Of a stretch of DNA of 64,000 nt, positions 9,695 to 46,889 are shown piece by piece. Where the stretch lies: NCBI GenBank assembly GCA_026392515.1, contig JAPLBY010000034.1:300-64299 (forward strand), in the 5' to 3' direction. A program made the translations under genes and the position numbers. How positions within the stretch are numbered: the stretch's first letter is position 1; each line of letters opens with the position of its first letter. This DNA is from Actinomycetota bacterium (GTDB lineage Bacteria; Actinomycetota; Actinomycetes; S36-B12; UBA5976). The notes beneath the pieces are model-generated. The model was not told the origin of the DNA and did not search any database. It worked only from the letters and a program-made list of their open reading frames with translations.

Positions 9695-9793
9695 CGCACC
9701 CCAATCCCCTCATACAGGCTTTCTTTGAATCAAAGCCTAGGAAGTAAGGGGCGTCAAGGGAAACGGGGAAACAGGTGCAATTCGTTACGTTCG

Positions 9794-20651: not shown

Positions 20652-21799
20652 GCTTCATCCAAACTTGGTGGGGCTACCGCATATCGAACTGGCGTTAGAG
20701 AAAACATAATTGGGTTTGCAACTTGTTTTCGTTCTTCGCCTTCTTGATTAATTGTGATGATTGGATTTAACTCCAAAGATTCAGCTAGTTCGAAGGCTTC
20801 AGAGATTGAATTGATTGGCCCACACGGCACTCCAGCATCAGAAAGCAGCTTCCACCAATGGTCTGCGCCATGCTGCGCGAACTGCTTAACCAACAGATCA
20901 TTTAGTTCGACTCGATTAGCAACTCGATCTGGGTTGGTTGCAAATTTTGGATCACCGGCAATTGCTGGGATTCCAAGTTCTTGGCACAACTTTGCAAACT
21001 GCCCATCGTTTCCAACTGCAACAACAATTGGGCGATCTGAAGTTTGATAAACCTCGTATGGACTAATTGAAGGATGAGCATTTCCTAAAATTCCAGGAAC
21101 GACGCCCCCAGAAACATATGAGCTGGCTTGATTGACCATTGCTGAAAGCAACGATGATAAAAGGTTGACTTCAATTTCCTGACCTTCGCCCGTTACATTT
21201 CGATGATTCAACGCAGCCAGTAAACCGATCGTGGCATGCATTCCAGTGATTACATCGACAAGTGCAACACCAACTTTGGTTGGTTCGCCTGGCGCAGGAC
21301 CAGTAACGCTCATCAGGCCGCCCATGGCTTGAACCAACAAGTCATAACCTGGCATCGCTGCCCCAACGCCAGATCCAAATCCAGTAATTGAACAGTAGAT
21401 AACTTCAGGCTTTAACTTCTTTACCGCCTCGTAATCCAATCCAAACTTTTCACTATTGCTCGGTGGGAAGTTATGAATGACAATGTCAGAGCGCTTAATT
21501 AGTTCATGGGCTTCAGCTAAGCCAGCCGGGTTTGTCATATCTATTGCAACTGATGTCTTGTTTCGATTTACTGACTCAAAATATGTTGCTCGCCCGGCTG
21601 CGTCATAAGGCGGGCCCCAGTGGCGAGTATCGTCGCCAACTTCTGGACGCTCAACTTTAATTACTGTGGCGCCCATGTCACCAAGCAACATAGTTGCGTA
21701 GGGACCAGCCAAAACTCGAGTGAAGTCGGCAACAACGATTCCGTCTAATGGGCCCATATGAAGATTGTATCCAATCTTGTTGGGGAGATTTGATGGCAA
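20648..21799 (-). CDS. family III CoA-transferase (CaiB/BaiF/Frc-like)
   Basis: LDGIVVADFTRVLAGPYATMLLGDMGATVIKVERP is the hallmark N-terminal region. Alternative start at MGPLDG (21757). Overlaps the downstream regulator gene by 4 nt. Confidence 0.85.
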   Translation of the reverse strand: MPSNLPNKIGYNLHMGPLDGIVVADFTRVLAGPYATMLLGDMGATVIKVERPEVGDDTRHWGPPYDAAGRATYFESVNRNKTSVAIDMTNPAGLAEAHELIKRSDIVIHNFPPSNSEKFGLDYEAVKKLKPEVIYCSITGFGSGVGAAMPGYDLLVQAMGGLMSVTGPAPGEPTKVGVALVDVITGMHATIGLLAALNHRNVTGEGQEIEVNLLSSLLSAMVNQASSYVSGGVVPGILGNAHPSISPYEVYQTSDRPIVVAVGNDGQFAKLCQELGIPAIAGDPKFATNPDRVANRVELNDLLVKQFAQHGADHWWKLLSDAGVPCGPINSISEAFELAESLELNPIITINQEGEERKQVANPIMFSLTPVRYAVAPPSLDEA

Positions 21800-21808: not shown

Positions 21809-22597
21809 TTAAAACTCTTTTAATTCAACCGTTCTGCCACGCTCGCCAGGTTGGTCTGGCGTCGCTGGTCGTCCCTTGGTGCGAACTGTGATTCGAGTTC
21901 GATCTCCACGAAAAAGATCATGTGAGTATTCAATCTTGCGACCTTTGGTATCCATAGTCGTTCGGGTGACGGCTAGCAGTGGTGCGCCAAGTGGAACTTC
22001 AAGGATTCTGGCTTCATCCAAAGTTGCATTCACTAAGTCGATCTGTTCAACCGCTTCATCTGGCGTTGTCTCGTAGTGCTTACTTAACAATTCATATAAA
22101 GAGTTACCCAACGGGCGCTCCAACAACCCAGGAAAAAACTCTGCTGGAAATCTTGCATGTTCCAACGAGATTGGAATGCTGTCCGCAAGACGGATTCGCA
22201 CTACATCAAAAATATGTTCGCCATCAGACAGCCCGAGAGCTTGCTGTGTCTTAGAACCGGCCGGCATAACGGATGCGCTAATCAATCGAGTGCCAGCGGT
22301 AAATCCTTGACCTCTGAGCAGTGATGGCACGCCCACAATCTGTGAAAGGTCGCGGTCGATTTTTTCTGGTGAAACAAAAGTTCCGCCACCACGTCCTGGT
22401 AAGCGGCGAACTACACCCGTCTCTTCGAGCGCAGTAAGTGCAATTCGCAAAGTTGAGCGACTGACTTGATATTCAATGGCTAAGTCGCGCTCGGCCCCAA
22501 GCTTTTTCCCGGCTCGCAATTGACCTGCGCTGATTTGCGCCAAGATTCGTTGCCGAACTTCTTCAGCAGTACGACCTAAGTCTTCGTTTGCGCTCAC
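21809..22597 (-). CDS. GntR-family transcriptional regulator, HutC/UTRA subfamily
   Basis: wHTH (ERDLAIEYQVSRSTLRIALTALEETGVVRRLPGRGGGTFV) followed by a UTRA-like effector domain. Directly downstream of the BMC enzyme genes. Confidence 0.85.
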   Translation of the reverse strand: MSANEDLGRTAEEVRQRILAQISAGQLRAGKKLGAERDLAIEYQVSRSTLRIALTALEETGVVRRLPGRGGGTFVSPEKIDRDLSQIVGVPSLLRGQGFTAGTRLISASVMPAGSKTQQALGLSDGEHIFDVVRIRLADSIPISLEHARFPAEFFPGLLERPLGNSLYELLSKHYETTPDEAVEQIDLVNATLDEARILEVPLGAPLLAVTRTTMDTKGRKIEYSHDLFRGDRTRITVRTKGRPATPDQPGERGRTVELKEF

Positions 22598-22621: not shown

Positions 22622-23404
22622 TTACATTGCTTCCAAGGCAGCAAGTGATTCCGGAAGAATTTGGCCACCATCAATTACCAAGGCTTGCCCAGTTACGTAA
22701 GCAGCTTCTTTTGTTGCAAAAAACAACGCAGCATTACCAATGTCATCAACTTCGCCTAAGCGTCCTTGCGGAACCGAAGCTTCCATTGCTTTGCGGTACT
22801 CAGGTCCCATGTCTGCAAGACCTTCGGTTGCAATGTTTCCTGGAAGTACCGCATTAACAGTGATTCCCTTTGGTGCTAACTCGATTGCGGCTGTGCGCAT
22901 GAAACCAAGTTGTGCTGCTTTGCTTGCGCCGTAATGCGACCAGCCCGGAAAACCTGTTACCGGGCCTGTGATCGATGAAGTGAGAACGATTCGACCATGA
23001 CCTGACTTTTCTAAAGCAGGCAGACAAGCCTGCACTGAAAGCATGGTGCCTTTAACATTTGTTCCAAACACTAAGTCCATGTCTGCTTCAGACATGGTCG
23101 CAAGTTTGGAATCTGGGAAAATTCCCGCGTTTGCACAAAGTACATCGATGCCGCCATTGCGTTCGATTGCGGTTTTGGCAACCATTTCGCAAGCTGATTT
23201 GCTGCTAACTTCAGCGATGACATAAGTAACGGTGCCGCCACCTAGGGCAGTCAGTTCTGCGCAGGCAGACTTAGCGCTTGCTTCATCGCGTCCTGTAATA
23301 AGAACATTTGCTCCAGCTTTTGCAAAGACTCGGGCAATACCTTTACCGATGCCTTTTGTTCCGCCAGTAACAACAACGGAATATCCACTTACTGAAGTAA
23401 ACAT
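22622..23404 (-). CDS. short-chain dehydrogenase/reductase (candidate aminoacetone reductase / 1-amino-2-propanol dehydrogenase of the BMC locus)
   Basis: TGGTKGIGKGIA cofactor motif, NAGI, and YGASKAA (YxxxK). Start set at MFTSVSG (ATG at 23404) with AGGAGA upstream. The longer ORF (to 23488) would overlap the kinase gene. Substrate assigned by locus context. Confidence 0.8.
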   Translation of the reverse strand: MFTSVSGYSVVVTGGTKGIGKGIARVFAKAGANVLITGRDEASAKSACAELTALGGGTVTYVIAEVSSKSACEMVAKTAIERNGGIDVLCANAGIFPDSKLATMSEADMDLVFGTNVKGTMLSVQACLPALEKSGHGRIVLTSSITGPVTGFPGWSHYGASKAAQLGFMRTAAIELAPKGITVNAVLPGNIATEGLADMGPEYRKAMEASVPQGRLGEVDDIGNAALFFATKEAAYVTGQALVIDGGQILPESLAALEAM

Positions 23405-23448
23405 GTTCTCTCCTAGTTTCCTAACGAGTTGTCGAAGGTTTCTTACAA

Positions 23449-24438
23449 TTATGCAAACTTTGACAGGTAGTTTTCGGCCAATTCGCAACTTACTTTGGTG
23501 AAATTGGCTCCCATTTCCTTGCCAGTATCTGTATCTTGATGCGTTCCCACCCAGGCGACGAGCAAAAGGCGTCGAAACATGATGAAAGTTGGAAGCTCTG
23601 CCTCTTCTTCCTTACTCAAATCGGCGACGCTTCGGTAACCATCTACCCAAGATGCAGTCATATCTGGAATCAAAGGGTGGTCTTCAATAAATGAAACTGA
23701 TGAACCTAGGTCATACATAAACCAACTAAAGCCGCAATCATCAAAATCAATGACTGTCACGTCTTTGTCCGCAACGAGTAAATTTGCAAGTCGCATATCG
23801 GCATGCACTAAACCAAAACGATCTTTTGATTTTCCAAATCGTTCTAGTCGAGATCCCAAAGTGTCGGAAAGCCGGCCAAGGATTTCTAATTCACTTGGTC
23901 CCATTGCAAGACCATCACGCCAAGATCCCCAGTGACCATTAGGGCCAAGTGCGGTTTCAAAATCCCAAGTAAATCTAAAGAAGTTACTCGGACGCTGCCA
24001 CTGTTTTGATTGATCATGTAGCCGAGCTGTGATCGCACCTAAAGTTTTGAAGTCATCAACAAGGCGATCTTCAGTAGGCTCAACGCCTGGCATGAATTCA
24101 AACATGACCGCATGACGCTCTTCGCCAGTTGAATCTTGCGCAGAGATAATTTGCTCACCAGATCCCGCAGGCAAAATTGCGGGAGTTCTGACAAGTTGAA
24201 CTTCGCGCAATGCTTGCACCCAATCAAGCTCACTCTGGATTGCTTGCGCAGTGTGATAAAACGGCCGATGAATTCTCAGAATCGTGTCAGTGCCGGTATT
24301 GCTATCGACAACCTTAAAAGTGGCATTCTCAGAAATGTTTAGAAGTGAAACCTCGGACTCTGGTGAATATCCAAACTTCGCAACGGCATCCCTGGCAAAC
24401 TCATGAAGCTTTGCAGGTTCGTTCGAGTACCCACTCAT
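23449..24438 (-). CDS. APH-fold (aminoglycoside phosphotransferase family) kinase, candidate 1-amino-2-propanol kinase
   Basis: 329 aa. Catalytic loop LVHADMRLANLLV (HxDxxxxN) and metal-binding IDFDDCG. Position in an RMM-type BMC locus. Confidence 0.8.
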   Translation of the reverse strand: MSGYSNEPAKLHEFARDAVAKFGYSPESEVSLLNISENATFKVVDSNTGTDTILRIHRPFYHTAQAIQSELDWVQALREVQLVRTPAILPAGSGEQIISAQDSTGEERHAVMFEFMPGVEPTEDRLVDDFKTLGAITARLHDQSKQWQRPSNFFRFTWDFETALGPNGHWGSWRDGLAMGPSELEILGRLSDTLGSRLERFGKSKDRFGLVHADMRLANLLVADKDVTVIDFDDCGFSWFMYDLGSSVSFIEDHPLIPDMTASWVDGYRSVADLSKEEEAELPTFIMFRRLLLVAWVGTHQDTDTGKEMGANFTKVSCELAENYLSKFA

Positions 24439-24512
24439 TTATCTCTCCTACCGACATCTATATTTTGGCTTAGTTACCAATATGTTTTGTCACTTTTTGG
24501 GAAGAAAAATGA

Positions 24513-25169
24513 TTAGCCTTGATCGCGACCAACTACTGCTTCAAGAGCCTGCGTAATTGCATCACGGGCCTTTGTAACACTTTCTGTTGTTCCACTCATG
24601 TATACCCGACCAGCTGCGCCGATCATTTGTACATCAACCAGCGTCACATCAGGTGCAACTTTTTCAGCTTCGTTAGCTGCAACCGTTGCAAAAAGTGCTG
24701 GTGTCATTTCGTATACCAAGAGTGATTCACCGGGCATAACCATCGAAGCTTGACGATTTCGGTTCAGAATAATTGCATGCTGATCCGTGATGTTTTCGAT
24801 GATGTCGCTGTAAAGAATCCGCGGGCGAAGTTGATCAGCTGCTGATGCGTTAATGCCATCAAGAATTGCCTGACCAGCTCGCTTCACTAACTCGATGTCG
24901 GAAGCATGTACTTCCAGAACTCCGAATTGGCGTTCTACGAACAAAATGCCAGGTTCAACTTCAGGTACCGACTTCAGCGCCAAGTCAATTACTCGCTCGA
25001 TCGCAAGCCCGGGTGCCACCTCAATGATCAACGAGTGCTGACCACCGTAAGGCGGGTAACCACGGGCTCGCGTCGGCGTGCTCATGTAAGCAGCGAATTG
25101 CTGCTGGAGCTCTTCAACAAGCAAGTAGACGCGTAGTTCGGGCCCTGCTACGAGCGGGCCCGTACTCAC
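24513..25169 (-). CDS. BMC shell protein, tandem-domain (BMC-T)
   Basis: 218 aa with two BMC-like repeats (IIEVAPGLAIERVIDLALKSVPEV..VERQFGVLEVHA and YEMTPALFATVAANEAEKVAPDV..IGAAGRVYMSG). Paralogous to 26290-26889. Confidence 0.8.
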   Translation of the reverse strand: MSTGPLVAGPELRVYLLVEELQQQFAAYMSTPTRARGYPPYGGQHSLIIEVAPGLAIERVIDLALKSVPEVEPGILFVERQFGVLEVHASDIELVKRAGQAILDGINASAADQLRPRILYSDIIENITDQHAIILNRNRQASMVMPGESLLVYEMTPALFATVAANEAEKVAPDVTLVDVQMIGAAGRVYMSGTTESVTKARDAITQALEAVVGRDQG

Positions 25170-25450
25170 GCGGAATCGCCAACTTTGAAGAACTTGTTTA
25201 GTTCTGCGTGTGGACGTGGAATTACGTGCTGTGAAACTAGTTCGCCAACTTGGTTAACTGCTTCGGCACCTGCATCAGTTGCAGCCTTAACTGCACCGAC
25301 ATCTCCCACGATGACTACAGCTACAAGGCCGTCGCCAACTTCTTCACGCGCAACAATAGTTACATTGGCTGCCTTAACCATGGCATCTGCAGCAGCTACA
25401 GCAGCTACATATCCCTTGGTCTCGATCAAGCCCAGTGCGTTGCTTGACAT
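25166..25450 (-). CDS. BMC shell protein, hexamer type (BMC-H, PduA/CcmK-like)
   Basis: 94 aa. ALGLIETKGYVAAVAAADAMVKAANV....GDVGAVKAATDAG is the canonical single BMC-domain pattern. Strong AGGAGA Shine-Dalgarno upstream. Confidence 0.93.
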   Translation of the reverse strand: MSSNALGLIETKGYVAAVAAADAMVKAANVTIVAREEVGDGLVAVVIVGDVGAVKAATDAGAEAVNQVGELVSQHVIPRPHAELNKFFKVGDSA

Positions 25451-25532
25451 AACTTTCTCCTACTTTGTGATTGCGAACGGTTGTCCGCTTTCGGGTCTTG
25501 CATTTTCTTAACCTGATTTCTCAGGCGCTGTA

Positions 25533-25802
25533 CTAGGAAGCGCTGTGCTTCCCAGAACTCTTAGTGTTCTCATCAATCGAACCGATGATGAGAGCGTCAA
25601 TTGGCGGGGTTACGTCCGGGAACCACGAGGCTGCTACCGAGCCCGTTGAAACCAAAACGCTTTCCCCAATTCCAGAACCTAAAACGTCAAAGGCAACCAA
25701 GTGTGCGCCACCCTCAACTTCGAGTTCGAGAAAGGCCCCATTGGGAATCTCGGTTAGACGACGAGTCGCCCATACATTGCCGATAACACGCGCTTTTAAC
25801 AT
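25533..25802 (-). CDS. BMC vertex protein (BMC-P, EutN/CcmL family)
   Basis: 89 aa. MLKARVIGNVWATRR..VAFDVLGSGIGESVLVSTGSVA..IDALIIGSID matches the EutN/CcmL pattern. Confidence 0.9.
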   Translation of the reverse strand: MLKARVIGNVWATRRLTEIPNGAFLELEVEGGAHLVAFDVLGSGIGESVLVSTGSVAASWFPDVTPPIDALIIGSIDENTKSSGKHSAS

Positions 25803-26290
25803 CAGCGCATCACCGATCCCTTCTGATTATCTTGTTGACTTTCTCTAATAATCGTTACTCCCAAGTCGCGCGCTTTATCGCGTGCAAGTGATGTAACGAC
25901 TACCTTCCGAGCCACGATCAAAGTTGATCCTGACTCGGCAGCTTTTCTGATTGTTGATTCGGTGACGGCACCCTTTTCAATGCGAGTGGTACCAGAATCA
26001 TGATTGCTATGGCTCGAAGTTGCATTGCCTAGCTGAAATACAAGTTCGCCTTGGCGCATAGCGTTAAGAGTTTTTGAGTCTGACGCTAGGTCAAGTACGC
26101 GATTTACAAAATTGGACACATCTGAATTGCTGCTTAGCAAAACCACTTCTATTACTTGCGCAGTTTTCGTTGGTTGTTGAGTTTGACCCGAGAGTGCTTT
26201 TGCAGCATCGCGAATACCGTCGGCTCCCCCGAGGGCATCACGTAGTGCTTCGCGCACTAGCGAGCGCAGCATTTCATTATCAGTGGACAT
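25802..26290 (-). CDS. hypothetical BMC-locus protein with N-terminal encapsulation-peptide-like amphipathic helix
   Basis: 162 aa. Residues 6-20 (EMLRSLVREALRDAL) form an amphipathic helix, followed by a G/Q/T-rich linker and a ~110-aa domain I cannot assign. It shares 1-nt start/stop overlaps with the shell genes on both sides (25802 and 26290). Confidence 0.6.
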   Translation of the reverse strand: MSTDNEMLRSLVREALRDALGGADGIRDAAKALSGQTQQPTKTAQVIEVVLLSSNSDVSNFVNRVLDLASDSKTLNAMRQGELVFQLGNATSSHSNHDSGTTRIEKGAVTESTIRKAAESGSTLIVARKVVVTSLARDKARDLGVTIIRESQQDNQKGSVMR

Positions 26291-26889
26291 TAGCGTTCAC
26301 TCAAAACTTTTTCAGCAACTTCAGCGGCTGCTCGAACGTTAGCTTCTTTGCCGGAAAGATAGACGCGACCAGTTGCACCAATCATTCGATAGTCAACGAC
26401 TTTGATGTCGGTTGCTTTCTCAGCTTCGTTGGTTGCCAAGATCGCGTATGAAGCCGGCTGGACTTCCAGGATGTAAAGAGATTCGCCCGGCAAAATCATA
26501 GATCCAACTTTGTTCCTATTAATAAGGAATGCATGCTGCTGATCAACCGATGGCACTACGCGTGATGCCAAGATTTTTGGTTTCGTCGCTTCTGCTTCAG
26601 TGGCACCTAAAGCAGCAAGTACTGCCTGACCAGCGGCGCGAACTTCTTCAGTTGGACCATGAATCTCAAGGTAACCGAAAGTTCGTTCCACAAACAAAAT
26701 TCCAGCTTGAACGTTCGCATGCTTTAGTGCAACGTCGGTAAGTGCTTCGATGTCCAGACCAGGTGCTACTTCAATTACTTGAGCAGCCATGTTTGCGCGT
26801 GGCAAAGCACCCTTAACCCATGAACCTAGGTAGCACATGGTTTGAGGTTGCATTTGGTCGATGTAGATGAACGACCGTAGCTCTGCCAT
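26290..26889 (-). CDS. BMC shell protein, tandem-domain (BMC-T), second paralog
   Basis: 199 aa. Repeats VIEVAPGLDIEALTDVALKHANV..VERTFGYLEIHG and LEVQPASYAILATNEAEKATDIKV..IGATGRVYLSG. Confidence 0.8.
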   Translation of the reverse strand: MAELRSFIYIDQMQPQTMCYLGSWVKGALPRANMAAQVIEVAPGLDIEALTDVALKHANVQAGILFVERTFGYLEIHGPTEEVRAAGQAVLAALGATEAEATKPKILASRVVPSVDQQHAFLINRNKVGSMILPGESLYILEVQPASYAILATNEAEKATDIKVVDYRMIGATGRVYLSGKEANVRAAAEVAEKVLSER

Positions 26890-26906
26890 TTGTATCTCTT
26901 CTCTGA

Positions 26907-28478
26907 TTAGTTCTTGATCAATGCGTGAAGTTCTTCGACGATCAACTTGCGGATTTCGTCTCGTAACTCAGCAACGTCTTGGGTTATCGGCTCGCGATGG
27001 TGATAGGAGTTTCCAGTTCCATAGTTTTCTTCATTGGATGCAACTGGATATGAAGGAACCGGACCGCTTGGACTCATCCATGGATTCAGGCCTGCAAAAG
27101 ATGGCATCACTTCGCGCGCATCAGCGTTGTAGGCAAGGCGCGTGTAGTTGATCAAATGCTTTGGCTGCAAATTTTCACCGACCGAAGATCGACCGGCAAA
27201 ACCAGTTCCGATAGTCATGGTTGGAGCTAAGTTCGTTTGAATTCCAGAAGCGCCAAGGCTGTTGCCGACATTTACCGAAACGCGGAGTACCGGAACTGCT
27301 GCGCTAAACGTCATGATCAATTCAGGATTTGAACTATGGATTGCAGCTGAATGTCCAGCGCCTGTAATGCGCAAGATCGCTCGAGCAATGTCGATTCCCC
27401 GAGTTGCAGTTGGTACGCGGACGAAACCTAGGACTGGGCACAATTTTTCATGAGCTAGAGGTTCTTCAGGCACCACTAGATCAAATGGTGCAACTAAAAC
27501 TCTAGTTTTGGCTGGAACTTTAATGCCCGCTTTTTCAGCAATCCAGACCGCATCCTTGCCAACCATCTTGGTGTTGAAGTGACCCTCTGGAAAAACTGCA
27601 TTACGAACGGCATCGCGCTCGTCATCCTTCAATACATATGCACCTTCGCGAGCAAAAGCCGCTAGCAACTTATCTGCGATCGCTTCTTCAGCGATTACAA
27701 CGCTTTCGTTAGTGCAAAGAATTGAGTTGTCGAATGCCTTGCTTTCAATAATTCGTGCAGCAGTCTTGGCAAGATCTGCTGTGGCATCGACTAAAACTGG
27801 AACGTTTCCAGGTCCCACACCAATTGCCGGATTTCCGCTTCGGTATGCCGATCGCACAACTGGCGTGCCACCGGTTGCAACCACGACATCGGTTCGCTCA
27901 TCAGTCATCAAAGCATTGATTAATGGAATTGAAGGGTCCTCAACAATTTGGATGATGCCATCCGGAGCTCCGGCTGCAACTGCCGCTTCAGACATTGCCT
28001 TAGCTGCTGCAACACAGACTTTCTTTGCCATTGGGTGCGGGCTAATGATGATGGAGTTACGTGTCATCAAGGCCAAGATGATTTTGAAAGAAACGGTAGC
28101 GACTGGATTAGTTGACGGGGTCAGTGCCAAGATCACGCCAGCAGGACGAGGGATCGCAACAATTTTGTTAACTTCATCTATCTCTGGTGAAACAAAATCT
28201 TGACCACGGTAAGACTCGACGATTCCGGTTGAACACGCAATATTCTTAAGAACTTTATGTTCAGCAACGCCAAAGCCAGTTTCGGATACGGCATCTCGAG
28301 CAAACTCTTGTGCTCTGGTTGCCAAGGCGGAAGCAGCCGCGTCAACAATGCGATTCACCGTTGCGATGTCGTACTTTGCGTAGGCCCGGGCAGCCCAATC
28401 AGCACGTTCCACCATTGCGCGACCACGTGGAACACCGGCTGGTTCAACCATTAACGGCTCAAAAGTCATTTCGCTCAT
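26907..28478 (-). CDS. CoA-acylating aldehyde dehydrogenase (PduP/EutE family) with C-terminal extension
   Basis: 523 aa. Catalytic-cysteine context FDNSILCTNESVVIAEE, as in EutE/PduP/AdhE-N. After the catalytic core comes a ~60-aa tail ending VAELRDEIRKLIVEELHALIKN (amphipathic helix). Confidence 0.88.
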   Translation of the reverse strand: MSEMTFEPLMVEPAGVPRGRAMVERADWAARAYAKYDIATVNRIVDAAASALATRAQEFARDAVSETGFGVAEHKVLKNIACSTGIVESYRGQDFVSPEIDEVNKIVAIPRPAGVILALTPSTNPVATVSFKIILALMTRNSIIISPHPMAKKVCVAAAKAMSEAAVAAGAPDGIIQIVEDPSIPLINALMTDERTDVVVATGGTPVVRSAYRSGNPAIGVGPGNVPVLVDATADLAKTAARIIESKAFDNSILCTNESVVIAEEAIADKLLAAFAREGAYVLKDDERDAVRNAVFPEGHFNTKMVGKDAVWIAEKAGIKVPAKTRVLVAPFDLVVPEEPLAHEKLCPVLGFVRVPTATRGIDIARAILRITGAGHSAAIHSSNPELIMTFSAAVPVLRVSVNVGNSLGASGIQTNLAPTMTIGTGFAGRSSVGENLQPKHLINYTRLAYNADAREVMPSFAGLNPWMSPSGPVPSYPVASNEENYGTGNSYHHREPITQDVAELRDEIRKLIVEELHALIKN

Positions 28479-29785
28479 GCTGACCTGCGCTCATTGCGAA
28501 CTTCGGCATACGCTTTTCCGATTGCCAATTCCGTTCTATCTAGCAGTTCTTCAGCAACTTCAGGCTTCAACAAAATACCTGGTTTGTACTGAAGTACTCG
28601 AGGATCAAGAGTTGAGAAGATTGCCCAAACACCATTTTCGTAAAGGTGACGCATTACGTATTTGGCACCTTGTGGGTGAGCAAATTCCAAGCCAAGGATT
28701 ACACCGTTTTGGCGAATGCCAACAAACCAATCAGGGTAAGTTGCCTGTATTGCAGCTAGGCGCTGACCGACATAATCGGCAATGTAATGAACCATGGAAC
28801 GTGTCTCTTCACGGGAGCAGACTTCTAAAGTTTTAAGCGCTGCGATACAACCAAGTTCGGCACCACCAAAAGTTGAGATATGGCCAAAGCCATCTTCATT
28901 AAGCCAACCGGCTGCTTTCTCAGTAGCAAGAACTGCAGCGATTGGATAAAGGCCGCCAGAAATCCCCTTGCCGGTAACAAGGATGTCTGGAGTAATTCCA
29001 TGCTTGGTAATACCCCAAAGTTCGCCAGTGCGCATCAAACCGGTTTGCACTTCATCTGCGATGTAAAGAGCATCGTATTTTTCGCACAGTTTTTTAACAG
29101 CTTCTAAGTAGCCAGGATTTGGAAGTGGGAAACCATACGTTGCTGGAATGGTTTCCATAATTACGGCTGCGACATCTCGGTCACGAAGCGCGTCTTCCAT
29201 GGCTTCTAGGTCATTAAACGGAACATGTGGAAATTCTTCTGGACGATCTGAAAGAAACAGTTTTGAGAAACGATCATCGCCAGTTCCAACAGCTAGTCCA
29301 GTGTGACCGTGGTAGGCCTTAATGATGGAAACAATTTTGCGCTTTTGCGTGGCATGACGCGCAGTCTTTAGTGCGATGTCAATTGCTTCGCCACCACCAG
29401 AGCCGTAAATAACTTTAGATAGTCCAGCTGGTGCTGACTTGATTAGAGCTTCGGCTAACGCAGTTCGAGCTAACGATGGGAAGTGGTGATTTCCAATATC
29501 AAAATGTTGCATTGCCATTGTTACGGCCTGAACAACTTCCGGATTTCTATGACCAAGGTTGTAAGTTCCACCATTTAGATGCGCATCAATTAAACGCTTA
29601 CCCGACATGTCGTAAATGAAATACTCTTCGCGTCGGTCAATTACTAGTGGGACACCCGAGTCGATCCAGAATTGAGTTTTGCCTGGATTCCAAAATTCTT
29701 TTGACTTCTCCAGCATCTGCTCTTTCGAGTCGTATGAGAATAAGCCGTAGTCGAATTCAGGTGCAGCTGTGTCTTCTTGTGTCAT
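28475..29785 (-). CDS. class III aminotransferase-fold PLP enzyme (candidate O-phospho-1-amino-2-propanol phospho-lyase)
   Basis: 436 aa. SGGGEAIDIALKTAR, AYHGHTG, ADEVQTGLMRTGELWG and LVTGKGISGGLYP (PLP lysine). The fold is clear. Lyase versus transaminase chemistry is inferred only from RMM-locus context. Confidence 0.8.
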   Translation of the reverse strand: MTQEDTAAPEFDYGLFSYDSKEQMLEKSKEFWNPGKTQFWIDSGVPLVIDRREEYFIYDMSGKRLIDAHLNGGTYNLGHRNPEVVQAVTMAMQHFDIGNHHFPSLARTALAEALIKSAPAGLSKVIYGSGGGEAIDIALKTARHATQKRKIVSIIKAYHGHTGLAVGTGDDRFSKLFLSDRPEEFPHVPFNDLEAMEDALRDRDVAAVIMETIPATYGFPLPNPGYLEAVKKLCEKYDALYIADEVQTGLMRTGELWGITKHGITPDILVTGKGISGGLYPIAAVLATEKAAGWLNEDGFGHISTFGGAELGCIAALKTLEVCSREETRSMVHYIADYVGQRLAAIQATYPDWFVGIRQNGVILGLEFAHPQGAKYVMRHLYENGVWAIFSTLDPRVLQYKPGILLKPEVAEELLDRTELAIGKAYAEVRNERRSA

Positions 29786-30156
29786 CCCGAACCCTTTCTC
29801 AATCTTGTGCGCTATCCGCGCGATGCCTTGGTAAACAAATGATTACATAAAATTACACCAAATGACCATACCTTTTAGCAACTTTTGGTTGAACTTTGGT
29901 TTAACAGATAAATCCGCTTAAAAACGGGGATTTACTGGCAAGTATGTCCGATTTGCGTATTTAAATCGAGATTTTTAGACCAAAATTGAAGTTTTGTTAA
30001 CCAAAAAAGTTCGAGAAACTAGCCAAATCTCATTGTGCTTGGGTTCGTTATCTGGCAAGGTCGATCCAATCGTGTGACTCAGGTCACCCGCAACTGAGCA
30101 ATATCAAGTGAGCAATGTTGGGAACTTCCCGGCGTTACAACGAAAGGGTCGAATAC
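29786..30156. promoter_or_regulatory. AT-rich divergent control region between the BMC operon and the permease gene, with repeated TTGGT-containing motifs
   Basis: Forward copies: TTGGTAAAC 29828-29836, TTGGTTGAAC 29885-29894, TTGGTTTAAC 29896-29905. Reverse copies: CACCAAA 29856-29862, TAGACCAA 29976-29983, GTTAACCAA 29996-30004. Candidate GntR operator half-sites. No promoter was mapped. Confidence 0.35.
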
Positions 30157-31737
30157 ATGTCGACAAATAACGAAAGCCAAAAAGGCCTTCGCAAGGGTGC
30201 CATTGGCTTAACCGCTGTTCTGTTCATGGCCGTAGCTAACGCTGCACCAATCACTGCGATGAGCTTTAACGTTCCAATCGGCGCGGGTTACGGTAACGGA
30301 CTCGGCGTACCGGCTGGATTCTTATTCGCAACGATAGTTCTATCCATCTTCGCAATTGGTTTCTCGGCAATGGCCAAGCACATCACGACTGCTGGTGCCT
30401 TCTACGGTTTCATTTCACATGGCCTTGGACAAGTTTGGGGTATGGCAGCTGGCTTGCTCGCAACCATTGCCTACATTCTTTTTGAAGGCACCCTCATCGG
30501 TGGCTTCGCGTTTTTCGCGGCCAACACATTGAGTTCAATGGCCGGGATCGAAGTCAATTGGTTGATTATTGCAATCGGCGGAATGATCCTGATCTGGGTT
30601 CTGACTTACTTTGACATCACGGTTGCTGCAGCCGTACTCGGCGTAACTCTCGTTGCTGAAGTTTTGCTACTTCTAGCATTTGGTATCAGTGTTCTAACTA
30701 AGGGTGGTCCAGATGGGTTCATGTTTAGTGAAACCGTTTCACTTGCCAATGCCTTTACCGGATTAGAAGCTAATGCCTACGGCACAACAGTTGCCGCTGG
30801 TACTGCTGCTCTAGGTATCTTCTTCGCTTTCTGGTCATGGATTGGTTTTGAAACCACTGCTGCTTACGGCGAAGAGTCCAAAGATCCAAAGCGTGTTGTT
30901 CCTCGTGCAACCATGATCGCCGTTGTCGGACTTGGCTTGTTCTACACCTTTGTTTCCTGGATGGTAGTTGTTGCTAACGGTCGAAAGGCAACCGTCGAAG
31001 TATCTACATACTCGACTGGAAACCCAATCGACTTGTGGTTGATTCCAGTTACCGACAACTTAGGATCATTGACAACCAGCTTCTATCGCGTGCTGCTGGT
31101 AATCGGATCATTCGCATGTGCATTGGCGTTCCATAACGCTGCATCTCGATATGTATTTGCGCTTGGCCGCGAACTTCCATTCGCTGGAGTTCGTAACCGA
31201 CTATCGAGCACTCATCCAAAGCATCAGTCACCAGCTGTGGCATCAACTGTCGTTACAGTAATCAACATCGTGATGGTTCTGCTGTTCGCAACCTTCTCAA
31301 CTGCCTGGACATCCGATCCAGCTGAAGCTGGAGCGACATCAGATCCAAGTTTGATTCCATATGGCGTTATTTACACCGTGCCTTCACTGGTAGGAACTGC
31401 GTTTATCTTGGTGGTACAGGTAATCTGCTCATTTGCAGTTATCGGATACTTCTGGGGCAAGAAGAAGCACAAGGGCAATGTTCTAACTACCCTGGTTGCT
31501 CCACTTGTTGGTGCTGCAGGCATGATCTACGCCTTGACACTTCTATTCGGCGCTGTTGGCTCAGGCTTCGCAGCTGGGTACCAGTCAAACTCGTTGATGG
31601 TCAAGTACTTGCCATACGAAATTGCTGGCACCTTGATCTTCGGTTTGCTTTACGCCCTATGGGTTAAGTCAAAGCATCCAGAAATCTACGAAGAAATTGG
31701 TCGTACGACTATGGAAGAAGCTCACGAACGCGCTTAG
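30157..31737 (+). CDS. APC-superfamily amino acid/amine permease
   Basis: About 12 TM segments. Start set at MSTNNESQKG (ATG at 30157) after GAAAGGG. The ORF-track start at 30115 adds 14 aa. Divergent from the BMC operon, as in RMM loci. Confidence 0.85.
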   Translation: MSTNNESQKGLRKGAIGLTAVLFMAVANAAPITAMSFNVPIGAGYGNGLGVPAGFLFATIVLSIFAIGFSAMAKHITTAGAFYGFISHGLGQVWGMAAGLLATIAYILFEGTLIGGFAFFAANTLSSMAGIEVNWLIIAIGGMILIWVLTYFDITVAAAVLGVTLVAEVLLLLAFGISVLTKGGPDGFMFSETVSLANAFTGLEANAYGTTVAAGTAALGIFFAFWSWIGFETTAAYGEESKDPKRVVPRATMIAVVGLGLFYTFVSWMVVVANGRKATVEVSTYSTGNPIDLWLIPVTDNLGSLTTSFYRVLLVIGSFACALAFHNAASRYVFALGRELPFAGVRNRLSSTHPKHQSPAVASTVVTVINIVMVLLFATFSTAWTSDPAEAGATSDPSLIPYGVIYTVPSLVGTAFILVVQVICSFAVIGYFWGKKKHKGNVLTTLVAPLVGAAGMIYALTLLFGAVGSGFAAGYQSNSLMVKYLPYEIAGTLIFGLLYALWVKSKHPEIYEEIGRTTMEEAHERA

Positions 31738-31810: not shown

Positions 31811-32887
31811 GTGTCAAAGCGGTTGATCCACAAGAATAAAGAGATGGCAACTGAAATTGAAGTTTGTAACTGGTCCCCTGACGAAGACGCCGATCCGGCA
31901 ACGCACACCTTTACTTTCGGCGGACGCAAACCAGTAATCAGTGTTAAGCCAGGAACCATAATTGACTCCTGGTCATTTGATTGCTTTGGTGGCCGCGTCA
32001 AGTCAGCAACCGACATGTCAACACAGGTTTGCGATCCACGATTCCTAAATCCACAAACTGGTCCGTTTTATGTTGAAGGCGCAGAGCCTGGTGACACGCT
32101 TGCTGTTCACTTTGTGTCGATTGAACCCCGAGAAGCTTGGGGCGTCAGCACAACTGTTCCATTTTTTGGGGCGCTGACTTCCACTCCGACAACTGCAACC
32201 TTGCAACCAGCACTTCTGGAGCGCACTTGGATCTATGAGTTGGATCTAAAAGATCGTCTTGTGCGTTATGCAGCTGCAGACACGAAATTTACTGCTGCAC
32301 TTCCGCTTGATCCAATGCATGGAACGGTTGGTGTGGCACCGGCTCTTGGTGAAGTTAGATCGTCACTGACACCAGGTAACTGGGGTGGAAATATGGATAC
32401 TCCAGAAATGCGAGCTGGCGTTACTTGTTATCTCGGCGTCAACGTTGAAGGTGCACTGTTTTCATTTGGTGACGGTCACGCCCGTCAAGGCGAAGGTGAA
32501 ACGTGTGGCGTGGCAGTTGAAACCGCAATGGATACTGTCTTGATTTTGGACCTTATTAAAGGCAGCCAAACTCCATGGCCGCGAATTGAATCCGATTATC
32601 ACATCATGACAACTGGATCAACCAAACCTCTTGAAGATGCGTTTCGAATTGCCCACTGTGAGATGGTGCATTGGGTCAGTGACTTAACTGGTCAATCAAC
32701 TTTGGATAGTTACCAGTTTGTCTCGCAAACTGCACTTACTCCAGTAGCAAACGTTGTTGATACGAACTACACCATGGTGGCTAAAGTCGCTAAAGATTAT
32801 TTGGGTAATGTGAACGTCATGCAGGGTATGCATCAAAAAATGCGAGCTCGCGCAGCGCAATGGCACGACTATCAGAAGGGTAAGTAA
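31811..32887 (+). CDS. acetamidase/formamidase-family amidohydrolase (FmdA/AmdA-like)
   Basis: 358 aa. TGPFYVEGAEPGDTLAVHF, GNWGGNMDT and FSFGDGHARQGEGE are family-typical. Start is uncertain (GTG at 31811 or ATG at 31844). Confidence 0.75.
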   Translation: MSKRLIHKNKEMATEIEVCNWSPDEDADPATHTFTFGGRKPVISVKPGTIIDSWSFDCFGGRVKSATDMSTQVCDPRFLNPQTGPFYVEGAEPGDTLAVHFVSIEPREAWGVSTTVPFFGALTSTPTTATLQPALLERTWIYELDLKDRLVRYAAADTKFTAALPLDPMHGTVGVAPALGEVRSSLTPGNWGGNMDTPEMRAGVTCYLGVNVEGALFSFGDGHARQGEGETCGVAVETAMDTVLILDLIKGSQTPWPRIESDYHIMTTGSTKPLEDAFRIAHCEMVHWVSDLTGQSTLDSYQFVSQTALTPVANVVDTNYTMVAKVAKDYLGNVNVMQGMHQKMRARAAQWHDYQKGK

Positions 32888-33321
32888 TGCCAAGAGTTGA
32901 ACGTATGGAAATCGATTTAGCACTAGCCATCGAAATGACCAACGCTGCAAAGGCTAAGGCGATTGAAATAAGTGCGCCTATGTCAATTGCAGTACTCGAT
33001 GCTGGCGCTAACTTGCTGAGCTTCCAAAGAATGGATGGCGCGGAATTAGCTGGACCGAATTTGGCGGTTGATAAGGCTTACACCTCGGTAACGAATCGAA
33101 TTGATACCGGTGACTTGCGAAGTCGCGTTGCTCCTGATGGTGACTTGCCTGGCATGAGTGCAAATGGCAATGGTCGTTACATCGCATTCACTGGTGGCAT
33201 TCCGTGCTGGGATGGCGATCGAGTAGTTGGAGCAATTGGCGTAAGTGGTGGTTCTTGGGAAGAGGATCAAATTTGTGCTGAAGCTGGAATTGAAGTCTTC
33301 AAGCGAGCTTGTAGCGCATGA
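32887..33321 (+). CDS. GlcG/DUF336 (PduO C-terminal domain-like) protein
   Basis: 144 aa. MSIAVLDAGANLLSFQRMDGA...AVDKAYTS...GGIPC..DGRVVGAIGVSGG fits the GlcG/HbpS-like family often encoded next to diol or glycerol dehydratases. ATGA overlap with the next gene. Confidence 0.75.
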   Translation: MPRVERMEIDLALAIEMTNAAKAKAIEISAPMSIAVLDAGANLLSFQRMDGAELAGPNLAVDKAYTSVTNRIDTGDLRSRVAPDGDLPGMSANGNGRYIAFTGGIPCWDGDRVVGAIGVSGGSWEEDQICAEAGIEVFKRACSA

Positions 33322-35552
33322 CTAACAAAGAACCGATTGGCCGCTTTCGGTTCATGAATGAACAGCGGGTCAATTTAGACGGCTTCGCTACACCGGCACC
33401 TGAACTCGGCTTAGTTGCATTTAACGGATTAAACGATCCAAAACCTTCCTTAATAATTCGTGATAACCGAATTATCGAAATGGATGGTCGTGCTGAATCT
33501 GAATTCGACTCAATTGATGAATTCATTGCCCGCCATGGTTTAGATCTAGGGGTTGCCCAAGAAGCAATGGCAATTGCAGACATTGACTTTGCTCGAAGAC
33601 TTGTGGATCCAAATCACTCTCGCGCAGACATTGTGCGACTTTCCTCAGGCATGACACCTGCGAAATTGGCAGCAGTTCTTTCGCTATTAAGTGCTGCAGA
33701 ACTTGTTATCGCAATGGCAAAAATGCGGGCACGACGAACGCCAAGTAACCAGGCACACGTCACAAATAGATCTGATGATCCACTCTTGCTTGCAGCTGAC
33801 GCTGCAACTGCCGCCGCTTTTGGTTTTCGCGAACTTGAGACTACGGTCCCGGTAGCAGCAGATGCACCATCTAATGCTGTTGCAGTTTCTATTGGCGCGG
33901 CAGTTGGGTCACCTGGCGTCTTAGTTCAATGTTCGGTTGAAGAATCAGCAGAGTTGGCATTAGGTATGCGTGGATTGGTTTCCTATGCCGAAACGGTTTC
34001 GCTTTATGGAACAGAGCAAATCTTTATTGATGGTGATGACACTCCTTGGTCAAAAGCATTCTTAACTAGCGCTTACGCAAGTCGCGGCATAAAGATGCGT
34101 GTAACTTCCGGTGGCGGATCTGAAGCCCTGATGGGTGGCGCTGAAATGTGCAGCATGTTTTACCTTGAAGCTCGATGCGTTGCACTAGCCCGAGCAATTG
34201 GCGCTCAAGGTGTGCAGAACGGTGGCATTGATTCTGCTGCGGTAGCCGGCGCCGTTCCTGGTGGCGTTCGTTCTCTGATGGCAGAAAACGTAATGGTTAT
34301 GATGCGAAACTTGGAAGCCTGTACTGGAAACGACGCTTTGATGAGTGAGTCAGATGTCAGGCGAACCTCTCGCACTCATCCAATCTTTATCGGTGGCTCT
34401 GACTTCATAAATAGCGGCTTTGGTTCGATTCAGCGCTACGACAATATGTTTGGTCCTAGTCAGTGGAACTCAGAGGACATAGATGATTTCTTAGCCATGC
34501 AACGTGACTGGGGTGTTGATGGCGGGCTTAGAACTGCGGACGAAGTAGAAGTTGAAAGACTTAGGCGCCGAGCTACTGAAGCAGTTACTGCGGTTTATTC
34601 CTGGCTTGGACTTGGAGACTTCTCGCAAGAGTGGGCCGAAGAAGCTATCGACGCAGCTGGATCAAAAGACATTTCTTCTGGCGACTTAATGCTTCCACTA
34701 ACTGCTGCCCGCACAATAATGGAAACTAACGTCACGATGCTCGACGTTATTGCCGCGCTTGCGGAAAATGGTTTTGATCTAGAAGCCCAAAGATGTCTCG
34801 ATATGCTTAAAGCTCGTGTGGCCGGTGACTATTTACAAACCTCAGCAATTTTTGATGAGCAAATGAATGTTCTATCGCTGGTCACTGATCCAAATGAATA
34901 TTCAGGACCAGGTACTGGTTACCAACCAAGCAGCGCTCGGCAAACGGAAATCGACACAATTCGCCAACAGCGTTCAGTTTCAGACTTGCGGACTGAGCAG
35001 CAAAGTTTTGCGAATAAAAATATTTTTGCATCTGGTGCTGCTGAGACAAGTTACGATCCTCGCGATGTTGTTATTGGAGTTTCGCCAGCAACTGGAAAAG
35101 ATATCTGGGTAACGCTCTCTGGATTAAGTCTTGCTGACGCAATATCAGAAGTCCTCGCAGGTTTAGAAGAAGAAGGATGCACTGGACGAATCGTCAGAAT
35201 TAACGACTCTCTCGATTTAGGAATGATTGGTCTTACTGCAGCCAGACTTTCTGGTTCAGGAGTCAGCGTTGGACTACAAGCAAAAGGTACGGCCTTGATT
35301 CATCGCAGAGATCTTGCGCCGTTAGCAAATCTAGAACTGTATTCAGTAGCACCAACTATCACCCGTGAGCTTTATCGCATGATGGGTATCAATGCTGGCC
35401 GTCATGCCAAGGGCGCCACTCCTGAGCCCGTTAGAAATCCTTACTCAGACGAGGCAATCGAAGCGCGCTATCACACCAAAGTAGTTTCGCTAGTTGCGAT
35501 TGAGCGTGAGTGCGTGAATAGTAACGGACCTGAAGTTATGGAGCTTAGATAG
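33318..35552 (+). CDS. pduCD: B12-dependent diol/glycerol dehydratase, fused large (PduC-like) and medium (PduD-like) subunits
   Basis: 744 aa. Residues 1-~560 align by eye with PduC (KMRARRTPSNQAHVTN, GFRELETTV, VQCSVEESAELALGMRG, YAETVSLYGTE, DDTPWSKAFLTSAYASRGIKMR, YDNMFGPSQ, GDYLQTSAIFD). Residues ~582-744 align with the PduD core (RLSGSGVSVGLQAKGTALIH..LANLELY). The N-terminal ~45 aa of free-standing PduD are absent. Confidence 0.92.
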   Translation: MTNKEPIGRFRFMNEQRVNLDGFATPAPELGLVAFNGLNDPKPSLIIRDNRIIEMDGRAESEFDSIDEFIARHGLDLGVAQEAMAIADIDFARRLVDPNHSRADIVRLSSGMTPAKLAAVLSLLSAAELVIAMAKMRARRTPSNQAHVTNRSDDPLLLAADAATAAAFGFRELETTVPVAADAPSNAVAVSIGAAVGSPGVLVQCSVEESAELALGMRGLVSYAETVSLYGTEQIFIDGDDTPWSKAFLTSAYASRGIKMRVTSGGGSEALMGGAEMCSMFYLEARCVALARAIGAQGVQNGGIDSAAVAGAVPGGVRSLMAENVMVMMRNLEACTGNDALMSESDVRRTSRTHPIFIGGSDFINSGFGSIQRYDNMFGPSQWNSEDIDDFLAMQRDWGVDGGLRTADEVEVERLRRRATEAVTAVYSWLGLGDFSQEWAEEAIDAAGSKDISSGDLMLPLTAARTIMETNVTMLDVIAALAENGFDLEAQRCLDMLKARVAGDYLQTSAIFDEQMNVLSLVTDPNEYSGPGTGYQPSSARQTEIDTIRQQRSVSDLRTEQQSFANKNIFASGAAETSYDPRDVVIGVSPATGKDIWVTLSGLSLADAISEVLAGLEEEGCTGRIVRINDSLDLGMIGLTAARLSGSGVSVGLQAKGTALIHRRDLAPLANLELYSVAPTITRELYRMMGINAGRHAKGATPEPVRNPYSDEAIEARYHTKVVSLVAIERECVNSNGPEVMELR

Positions 35553-35554
35553 TT

Positions 35555-35920
35555 ATGCGTGAACAAAAAGGTTTTTCTGGGAAAAACGTTTCTGAAGTAA
35601 CTGTTGAGTCAATTCGACGCGGCGACATTACTCTCGACGATGTCAGAATCCATCCTGAAACTTTGGCAAAGCAAGCCCAAGTAGCCAGAGACAATGGCAA
35701 TCCACAATTAGCTGAAAACTTTCTTCGCGCCGCAGAGCTAACTTCGTTATCAGACGAGTTAGTTATGGGTTACTACGATGCCTTGCGTCCGGGACGTTCA
35801 ACTCCCACACAGCTATTAGAAATTGCCGACGACTTATCAAAGCATGGTGCGGAAAAGAACGCAGAACTATTTAGGCAAGCGGCAGATGTCTATGCTCGTC
35901 GTGGTTTAGCAGCAAAATAG
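35555..35920 (+). CDS. pduE: diol dehydratase small subunit (PduE-like)
   Basis: 121 aa. DDVRIHPETL..QA..A...G...LA.NF.RAAELT...D.....YY.ALRPGRST...LL.IADDL matches the PduE core. Lacks the N-terminal extension of enterobacterial PduE. Confidence 0.88.
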   Translation: MREQKGFSGKNVSEVTVESIRRGDITLDDVRIHPETLAKQAQVARDNGNPQLAENFLRAAELTSLSDELVMGYYDALRPGRSTPTQLLEIADDLSKHGAEKNAELFRQAADVYARRGLAAK

Positions 35921-35925
35921 TTCTC

Positions 35926-42666: not shown

Positions 42667-42709
42667 GTCTGCACATGTGCGCACTCCCTAAAGTCCCTAG
42701 GCTAGGGAC

Positions 42710-43954: not shown

Positions 43955-44084
43955 TTACCTTCTTCAGCGTTAGCAAACTGTTACTTTAAGTGAGTTGCCA
44001 TTATTCAATGCTATTTCGTTGTAAGTTTCACTTGAGAAAGCTTAGGTTTTCGTGGGTAAATCGGACATTTGAAAGTAGGCCGCA

Positions 44085-46887: not shown

Positions 46888-46889
46888 GA

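Follow-up and report, generated by a model that had tools for sequence, protein, structure and literature searches.

A probable RMM1/AAUM-type microcompartment locus beside a B12-dependent diol dehydratase operon in an uncultured freshwater 'Candidatus Nanopelagicales' actinobacterium

Gene content of the microcompartment locus

We analyzed a 64,000-nt stretch of DNA (hereafter the window; positions 300 to 64,299 of contig JAPLBY010000034.1, assembly GCA_026392515.1) from an uncultured actinobacterium, in which nine co-directional genes on the minus strand (22622–29785) encode the shell and enzymes of a bacterial microcompartment (BMC) of the Rhodococcus/Mycobacterium microcompartment (RMM) type, otherwise termed AAUM, which is associated with the utilization of aminoacetone and 1-amino-2-propanol; a divergent operon on the plus strand includes a B12-dependent diol dehydratase. 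The functions and coordinates that a preliminary description, made from the sequence alone, had given for the nine genes were borne out by the open reading frame (ORF) list and by Pfam and NCBIfam scans, as were the flanking divergent APC permease (AA_permease_2) and HutC-type GntR regulator (GntR and UTRA domains). In the order of transcription, the core and its immediate neighbors comprise:

30115..31737, plus strand: APC-family amino-acid/amine permease, leading the divergent operon; PF13520 (AA_permease_2) and PF00324
28475..29785, minus strand: class-III aminotransferase-fold pyridoxal phosphate (PLP) enzyme, 436 aa; PF00202 (Aminotran_3), 1.7e-73
26907..28478, minus strand: CoA-acylating aldehyde dehydrogenase, 523 aa; PF00171 (Aldedh), 2.5e-27; EutE/AdhE-type NCBIfam profiles, 1e-116 to 1e-131
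26910..26978, minus strand: predicted encapsulation peptide (DVAELRDEIRKLIVEELHALIKN) at the C-terminus of the aldehyde dehydrogenase, preceded by a Pro/Gly-rich linker that varies
26290..26889, minus strand: BMC-Tdp shell protein, 199 aa; PF00936, 5.4e-10; PDB 5L39 (MSM0275), 2.7e-92; CcmP profile, 1.5e-63
25802..26290, minus strand: RMM-specific 162-aa protein; no Pfam family
25533..25802, minus strand: BMC-P vertex pentamer, 89 aa; PF03319 (EutN_CcmL), 9e-17; PDB 5L37 (MSM0273), 5.4e-31
25166..25450, minus strand: BMC-H hexamer, 94 aa; PF00936, 6.8e-27; PDB 5L38 (MSM0272), 6e-40
24513..25169, minus strand: BMC-Tdp shell protein, 218 aa; PDB 5SUH (MSM0271), 2.1e-95; CcmP profile, 2e-59; PF27545 (CsoS1D_N) in precomputed hits
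23449..24438, minus strand: APH-fold kinase, 329 aa; PF01636, 3.6e-25; best PDB match 6EF6, 1.8e-90
22622..23404, minus strand: short-chain dehydrogenase/reductase (SDR), 260 aa; adh_short, 2.6e-50; PDB 3PK0, 6CI8 and 6CI9, ~1e-97
21809..22597, minus strand: HutC-subfamily GntR regulator, 262 aa; GntR and UTRA domains

All genes of the locus are intact. Overlaps of 1–4 nt, which had been put at most of the junctions, occur at four of the eight within the nine-gene operon; the other four are gaps of 17–82 nt. For the SDR, the most likely start is the ATG at 23404 and not the TTG at 23488, because an AGGAGAG ribosome-binding site lies upstream of the ATG and all orthologues begin MFTS.

Related loci were collected by scanning one genome per GTDB species with the family of the 162-aa protein, which returned 235 relatives, and their gene content was surveyed by a tblastn census of the 20 proteins of the window against the fetched loci. 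The nine-gene core is conserved among the related loci; the permease keeps its position, and the HutC gene follows the SDR gene in most of them. The shell proteins, kinase and SDR all have RMM proteins of Mycobacterium smegmatis as their best or near-best structural matches (1e-31 to 1e-98), which upholds the match to the RMM gene set and order that had been stated in the preliminary description. Assignment to RMM over another BMC type likewise stands, in that the shell proteins are closest to MSM0271, MSM0272, MSM0273 and MSM0275, and the kinase has 6EF6 as its best match. Thus, an uncultured freshwater 'Candidatus Nanopelagicales' actinobacterium very probably has here a complete metabolosome locus of the RMM1/AAUM type that works as proposed below. 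The RMM organelle type has already been described; what is new is this member in a new host lineage that is prominent ecologically.

Shell proteins

The best natural PDB match of each shell protein is its M. smegmatis RMM counterpart (1e-31 to 1e-95, against 1e-5 to 1e-51 for the next relatives), an assignment made by best PDB match and not by tree. For BMC-H, 5L38 is slightly outscored by 6NER, an engineered tandem-fusion entry; the BMC-H translation contains the KAAN and PRPH interface motifs. The T-H-P-x-T order in the window is the order of the M. smegmatis locus tags 0271–0275, as taken from the names of the PDB entries.

Three of the four proposed shell ORFs (BMC-H, BMC-P and the 199-aa BMC-T) matched the BMC hidden Markov models (HMMs). 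The 218-aa BMC-T had no PF00936 match at E <= 0.01 and did match the CcmP profile, and we therefore ascribe the missing match to the limited reach of the HMM where domains are permuted and do not regard it as a refutation. Both T proteins belong to the Tdp class of permuted, double-stacking shell proteins. Each scores far better against its own M. smegmatis counterpart (1e-92 to 1e-95) than against the other paralogue (1e-42 to 1e-48), which indicates, in line with published work, that the two T genes are distinct paralogues that diverged long ago.

A tblastn search of the 64-kb window with the shell proteins recovered just these four genes and no satellite shell genes. The inventory of one BMC-H, one BMC-P and two different BMC-Tdp agrees with the preliminary count; its minimal size, which had been singled out there, is canonical and not remarkable, because it is exactly the published RMM1/AAUM1 complement.

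Encapsulation peptides and the 162-aa protein

The aldehyde dehydrogenase ends in a conserved helix behind a linker, which from its sequence has the classic anatomy of a putative encapsulation peptide. The pattern [LM]R.E[IL]RR[LV][IV][IV]EEL was found in 64 stop-to-stop frames assigned to the dehydrogenase and in four gene-fragment frames, where the dehydrogenase gene has a frameshift or runs off the end of a contig. Of the 66 dehydrogenase C-termini listed, almost all close with ELR[DE]EIRR[LV][IV][IV]EEL, and the preceding Pro/Gly-rich linker varies in both sequence and length. A search of every frame of 81 loci, by regular expression and by an HMM of the dehydrogenase peptide, found the motif in no other gene. 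Inspection of the termini of the PLP enzyme, the kinase and the products of the divergent operon (dehydratase subunits, reactivase, HbpS-like and FmdA-like proteins) revealed no conserved extension. The SDR is the exception: RMM-type SDRs (22622–22660 here; orthologues in L015–L080 of the related loci) carry a short conserved C-terminal tail, GGQ[IV]LPESLxALxxM, past the usual end of the SDR fold, which might serve as an oligomerization or targeting element.

The 162-aa protein opens with an amphipathic helix (EMLRSLVREALRDAL), which a variable linker connects to two small alpha/beta modules; the C-terminal module bears the motif KGAVTE...VTSLARDKARDLGV. The helix (residues 5–19; 26234–26278 in the window) resembles an encapsulation peptide, and in the family alignment it is invariant at R9, V12, R13 and L16. 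The family is large, with 953 clusters at 50% identity (E <= 1e-3). A Pfam scan of 26 members gave scattered chance matches only; weak profile matches were obtained to TIGR02536 (eut_hyp) in 17 of the 26 members (best 3e-5) and to PduM in three, with scores far under the curated cut-offs (21.5 versus 152.6 bits). These weak matches, which fall in the C-terminal module, hint at a cargo-organizing or structural component. In comparison with PduM and TIGR02536 proteins, the 162-aa protein is shorter, has its own N-terminal amphipathic helix and variable linker, and yields no confident fold: the AlphaFold2 model is of low confidence (pLDDT 64.5, pTM 0.27), and a Foldseek search of the PDB with this model returned nothing at E <= 1e-3, with all TM-scores < 0.3. 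The analysis thereby defines a large uncharacterized family, of ~950 clusters at 50% identity, in which a targeting-like helix is conserved.

Core enzymes and proposed pathway

All three signature enzymes of the pathway are encoded, the kinase and SDR as recognized by structure match and the PLP enzyme by its domain and conserved position. The kinase shows the catalytic motifs HADMRLAN and DFDD, and kinase-like sequence is present in nearly all loci with a contig that spans that side of the operon. We take its best match, 6EF6, to be the M. smegmatis (S)-1-amino-2-propanol kinase, and 6CI8 and 6CI9, matched by the SDR, to be the RMM aminopropanol dehydrogenase. Orthologues of the PLP enzyme occupy the same position in related loci and are 69–99% identical. 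The aldehyde dehydrogenase has the acylating acetaldehyde dehydrogenase 5J78 as its best PDB match (5e-94), with weaker matches to PduP-type entries; on these profile and structure matches, it is assigned to the acylating EutE/AdhE class, the core enzyme of metabolosomes.

In the proposed pathway, the divergent APC permease would import an amino alcohol or aminoacetone, the SDR would interconvert aminoacetone and (S)-1-amino-2-propanol, and the APH-fold kinase would phosphorylate the latter. For the PLP enzyme we propose a phospho-lyase activity on 1-amino-2-propanol O-phosphate, with propionaldehyde, ammonia and phosphate as the products. The acylating aldehyde dehydrogenase, targeted to the shell by its C-terminal amphipathic peptide, would then convert propionaldehyde to propionyl-CoA within a shell of one BMC-H, one BMC-P and two BMC-Tdp. 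The 162-aa protein, with a similar N-terminal helix, probably organizes cargo or is structural, and the HutC regulator probably controls both divergent promoters. We infer the placement of the enzymes inside the shell, the phospho-lyase activity and the regulation.

Four points tell against this pathway. No encapsulation peptide was found at the inspected termini of the PLP enzyme or kinase. Among solved structures, putrescine and acetylornithine transaminases come nearest to the PLP enzyme (E 5e-53), and for this reason its role as a phospho-lyase is one that we infer. The phospho-lyase chemistry itself leans on proposals made for M. smegmatis and on classical amino-alcohol biochemistry. Finally, the locus encodes no phosphotransacylase or alcohol dehydrogenase for cofactor recycling, which is a feature of all RMM loci (Axen 2014).

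The resemblance of the PLP enzyme to transaminases is in keeping with an earlier hypothesis, under which a true aminotransferase makes methylglyoxal from aminoacetone, the shell confines the methylglyoxal, and the dehydrogenase yields pyruvyl-CoA (Axen 2014). We regard this as improbable, given that it offers no function for the kinase, which is strictly co-conserved. The kinase also aligns to the N-terminal ~300 positions of two ~1000-aa NCBIfam profiles, PRK06149 and PRK06148 ('aminotransferase' and 'hypothetical protein'). These profiles presumably represent kinase-aminotransferase fusions, which would fit a kinase/phospho-lyase pair. In addition, later reviews describe RMM as a route from 1-amino-2-propanol or aminoacetone to propionyl-CoA.

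Adjacent diol dehydratase operon

The preliminary description ended the locus at 31737, which cuts the plus-strand operon short and misses the remainder of it: the permease heads a tightly packed array (gaps of −4 to +73 nt) that extends to 37569 and includes a coenzyme-B12-dependent dehydratase. Downstream of the permease, it encodes:

31811..32887, plus strand: acetamidase/formamidase-family (FmdA/AmdA-like) protein; PF03069, 7e-24; start probably the ATG near 31844
32887..33321, plus strand: HbpS/GlcG-like (DUF336) protein, overlapping its neighbors by 1 and 4 nt; PF03928, 1.2e-32
33318..35552, plus strand: coenzyme-B12-dependent diol/glycerol dehydratase, large and medium subunits in one fused protein, 744 aa; PF02286, 6e-228; PF02288, 4e-24
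35555..35920, plus strand: diol dehydratase small subunit, 121 aa; PF02287, 1.7e-35
35926..37569, plus strand: homologue of the large subunit of diol dehydratase reactivase, 547 aa; PF08841 and PF18427

The fused dehydratase matches the fused glycerol dehydratase alpha-beta structure 9VI2 (2e-201) and 1DIO (9e-162). There is no gene for a small reactivase subunit (PduH/DdrB-like) 3' of the reactivase gene, here or in the related loci examined; the next gene lies 84 nt downstream. The FmdA-like gene accompanies the RMM locus in Nanopelagicales and in Nocardioides-like loci.

Of the 80 related loci in the census, 42 have the dehydratase next to the RMM operon, and they fall into three architectures. 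In 12 loci, among them every informative Nanopelagicales-like one, it is divergent and lies past the permease; in 24, mostly Streptosporangiaceae-like and soil metagenome-assembled genomes (MAGs), it is co-directional and comes straight after the HutC gene; and in six, which include Nocardioides agariphilus and N. islandensis, it is convergent after the HutC gene. It is absent from nine loci whose flanks on either side measure >= 4.4 kb, among them those of Pseudonocardia acaciae and Leucobacter ruminantium and four that are Dongiaceae-like.

Classification and comparison with known loci

Two published catalogues draw the boundary between RMM subtypes differently. In the first, RMM1 loci have hydrolases and no dehydratase, and RMM2 loci have a diol dehydratase on the opposite strand and lack the hydrolases; the question of whether the organelle is bifunctional was left undecided (Axen 2014). 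The second lists 140 RMM1/AAUM1 loci from Actinobacteria and Proteobacteria with one BMC-H, one BMC-P and two different BMC-Tdp, redefines RMM2 by gene order with hosts in Proteobacteria and Marinimicrobia, and deems the enzymes of the propanediol utilization (PDU) type probably unimportant (Sutter 2021). The locus described here has no Abhydrolase gene between 20004 and 39970 and has the dehydratase at 33318–37569, divergent from the shell operon and with Abhydrolase_3 genes absent, and is therefore 'RMM2' in the sense of Axen 2014 and not RMM1. In the sense of Sutter 2021 it is RMM1, with the RMM1 shell complement, the M. smegmatis gene order and a PF00171 dehydrogenase that bears an encapsulation peptide. 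It is not RMM2 in that catalogue, given that its order is that of RMM1 and the closest genomes are labeled Candidatus Nanopelagicales or Actinomycetota. An order in which the kinase and SDR genes come first, taken here to be the redefined RMM2 order of Sutter 2021, was found only in Dongiaceae-like loci (L033, and L044, L051 and L058 by matching core offset), which lack the dehydratase.

The closest described counterpart is the RMM1/AAUM1 locus of M. smegmatis mc2 155 (MSMEG_0269–0277), which has the same nine genes in the same order, the same shell complement, kinase and SDR, a HutC regulator and a divergent permease, and likewise lacks a phosphotransacylase and an alcohol dehydrogenase. By comparison, the locus in the window belongs to a freshwater Nanopelagicales host of 48% GC; it has the FmdA-like amidase, HbpS-like protein, fused B12 diol dehydratase and reactivase after the permease and, after HutC, a family-III CoA-transferase and a second GntR regulator; and it lacks the alpha/beta hydrolases of RMM1 in the sense of Axen 2014.

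With the PDU system of Salmonella and Klebsiella (PduCDE, PduGH, PduP), the locus shares a B12 diol dehydratase, a reactivase and an acylating propionaldehyde dehydrogenase with a terminal targeting helix, and propionaldehyde would be the confined intermediate in both. However, the alpha and beta subunits of the dehydratase are fused here and lack the N-terminal targeting extensions of the PduD and PduE type, PduH, PduL, PduQ, PduA/B/J/K/T/U and PduO are missing, and the targeting peptide of the dehydrogenase is C-terminal where that of PDU is N-terminal. The shell is RMM-type and includes Tdp proteins, which PDU1 lacks. With no terminal extensions on the dehydratase, no PduL or PduQ domains in the locus and an RMM-type shell, this is not a PDU locus.

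Role of the dehydratase

The dehydratase could provide a second route to propionaldehyde, from 1,2-propanediol, that feeds the same aldehyde dehydrogenase; we put the likelihood of this at slightly short of even. More tentatively, and with doubt prevailing, we propose for most actinobacterial RMM loci, this one included, that the dehydratase is a selected functional partner of the organelle and that the shell is a dual-input propionaldehyde metabolosome, supplied with amino alcohols via the kinase and phospho-lyase and with 1,2-propanediol via the dehydratase. The latter would either be brought in by means other than a canonical encapsulation peptide (for example, via the PduM-like 162-aa protein) or supply aldehyde from outside the shell. 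The dehydratase has stayed adjacent to the RMM operon across three rearrangements (Nanopelagicales-like, Streptosporangiaceae-like and Nocardioides-like loci), and adjacency that outlasts rearrangement argues for functional coupling. In the window, it also belongs to an operon-like array with the RMM permease, and both routes would meet at propionaldehyde, the substrate of the encapsulated dehydrogenase.

Some findings count against such a shared role. Neither the dehydratase subunits nor the reactivase showed a terminal extension or a motif like the encapsulation peptide, by inspection of termini or by the motif and HMM searches. The medium-subunit part of the dehydratase aligns to the beta subunit of Klebsiella diol dehydratase only from residue 53, which indicates that the N-terminal stretch is absent; in PduD this stretch holds the targeting peptide. 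Moreover, the 80 loci of the census were chosen by similarity to the 162-aa protein and include related genomes, such that 42 loci with the dehydratase against nine without comes from a biased sample and the ratio is indicative only. The alternative is that the dehydratase operon is a mere neighbor, with the shell handling amino alcohols alone and the dehydratase acting in the cytoplasm on glycerol or 1,2-propanediol. The missing encapsulation peptides and terminal extensions, the position of the dehydratase on the opposite strand in this window and the nine informative loci that lack it (Pseudonocardia, Leucobacter, Dongiaceae and others) are as this alternative would have it, but the preserved adjacency, the shared array with the permease and the common intermediate speak for coupling, and we judge its prospects to be evenly balanced.

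If the dual-input reading is true, it would overturn the catalogue view of PDU enzymes as incidental neighbors, and the Nanopelagicales would gain a microcompartment-based route for scavenging both carbon and nitrogen. The association between RMM loci and the dehydratase is common and survives gene rearrangement, which reopens the question of a bifunctional organelle, now in testable form.

Host lineage and inheritance

The six closest loci (95–98% identity; L006–L009 and L011 among them) come from five MAGs labeled Candidatus Nanopelagicales and one (L006) labeled Actinomycetota, and a further sixteen lake or pond actinobacterial MAGs (L010, L012–L014 and L016–L027 among them) are 44–86% identical. 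Remoter relatives belong to Nocardioides, Streptosporangiaceae, Pseudonocardia, Leucobacter, Janibacter and the alphaproteobacterial Dongiaceae. Nanopelagicales MAGs carry the same locus with intact reading frames, the encoded proteins being mostly 44–100% identical. The aldehyde dehydrogenase sequence was found only in Logan assemblies of sequencing runs. For ArgS, > 120 metagenomic variants at 95–99% identity were recovered, which suggests a very abundant uncultured population.

The argS-lysA-hom-thrC-thrB-rho block is present in the window as had been described, although it does not directly adjoin the locus, in that two genes intervene between HutC and argS:

20648–21799, minus strand: family-III CoA-transferase; PF02515, 1e-117
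20004–20651, minus strand: FCD-type GntR regulator; FCD and GntR domains

This pair is kept in Nanopelagicales-like loci with contigs that extend that far and is confined to them, except for two weak matches to the FCD-type GntR (L042 and L083; 26–36% identity). A role of the pair in propionyl-CoA handling is speculative.

Synteny with argS is kept in the 11 relatives with contigs that reach it. Relatives down to 75% ArgS identity retain the gene order and the argS flank, and their shell proteins are 75–100% identical, which points to vertical inheritance under purifying selection. Members of Candidatus Nanopelagicales are small-genome freshwater plankton, and a host lineage so labeled would be compatible with the locus being a recent genomic island or a decaying remnant outside the working metabolism, as would the horizontal movement of microcompartment loci known from the literature. 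We consider such a status highly improbable. GC content is 0.479 in the RMM locus against 0.476 for the window, all genes are intact, and the borders lack an integrase, tRNA or repeat, the sole tRNA lying at 60081 (a scan of the window at Rfam gathering thresholds found this one tRNA and no riboswitch). Given the uniform GC and the argS synteny, the locus is therefore resident and not an island, and an origin as an island or by horizontal transfer was rejected on these grounds.

The lower GC of the host, to which the preliminary description drew attention, is real (0.46–0.49 across the whole 64-kb window). A lower-GC actinobacterial host is only mildly notable, because the published host range, with 140 loci from Actinobacteria and Proteobacteria, was already broad. 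Full-text literature searches retrieved no paper reporting microcompartments in Nanopelagicales or Planktophila, and a search on acI and diol dehydratase gave nothing relevant. The host range of RMM/AAUM is thus extended to uncultured freshwater Nanopelagicales, which is of value mainly for classification and ecology, with 1-amino-2-propanol, aminoacetone and perhaps 1,2-propanediol as candidate substrates for these plankton.

Three MAG records titled 'Bifidobacterium breve' (L021, CAMBGF010000007.1; L048, CAMAWO010000068.1; L078, CALPZT020000144.1) bear an RMM locus. The first is 66–98% identical and keeps the argS synteny, the other two are 34–84% identical, and the label looks wrong.

Divergent control region

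Alignment of eight orthologous intergenic regions between the PLP enzyme and permease genes revealed blocks conserved in the eight lineages, among which are an inverted repeat and several TGGT(C/G)TA and AAACCAA elements:

29786..30114: divergent control region, 329 nt, with conserved blocks
30074–30087: inverted repeat GTGACCTGAGTCAC, a conserved block
29976–29982 and 29854–29860: half-sites TGGTCTA and TGGTGTA, respectively
about 29880–29902: conserved block AAACCAAAGTTCAACCAAAAG

The blocks resemble what we take to be half-sites of the HutC family, and are candidate HutC operators and promoters. A scan for promoter consensus sequences found fewer promoter-like sites than in shuffled sequences, and terminators were at chance level.

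Other genes in the window

Beyond the dehydratase operon, urease-like genes (a gamma-beta fusion and an alpha subunit; 39293–41658) lie downstream of an Amidohydro_3 gene (37654–39249), with no ureEFGD accessory genes near them. They are followed by genes for an AAT-family acyltransferase-like protein, a DAO flavoprotein and a Pot-type ABC transporter (41668–48014). A 270-aa solute-binding ORF (48486–49298, plus strand), which matches SBP_bac_8 only from position 50, lies 470 nt after a full-length 374-aa solute-binding protein and may be a truncated duplicate or pseudogene. Between hom and lysA, a 348-aa ORF without a Pfam match (15879–16925, plus strand) is on the opposite strand to the co-directional argS-rho block.

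A minus-strand cluster at 490–10606 encodes a class-III aminotransferase, Amidohydro_2, glutamine-synthetase-like and GATase_4 proteins, a Liv-type ABC transporter and a DUF6885 protein, and looks like a gamma-glutamylation-type module for amine catabolism. On the plus strand, genes for RidA, a DUF1028 protein, an M20 peptidase, a non-acylating aldehyde dehydrogenase, a class-III aminotransferase and an APC permease (51725–58383) form a second catabolic array for amines or amino acids; all told, a large part of the window is given over to the scavenging of organic nitrogen.

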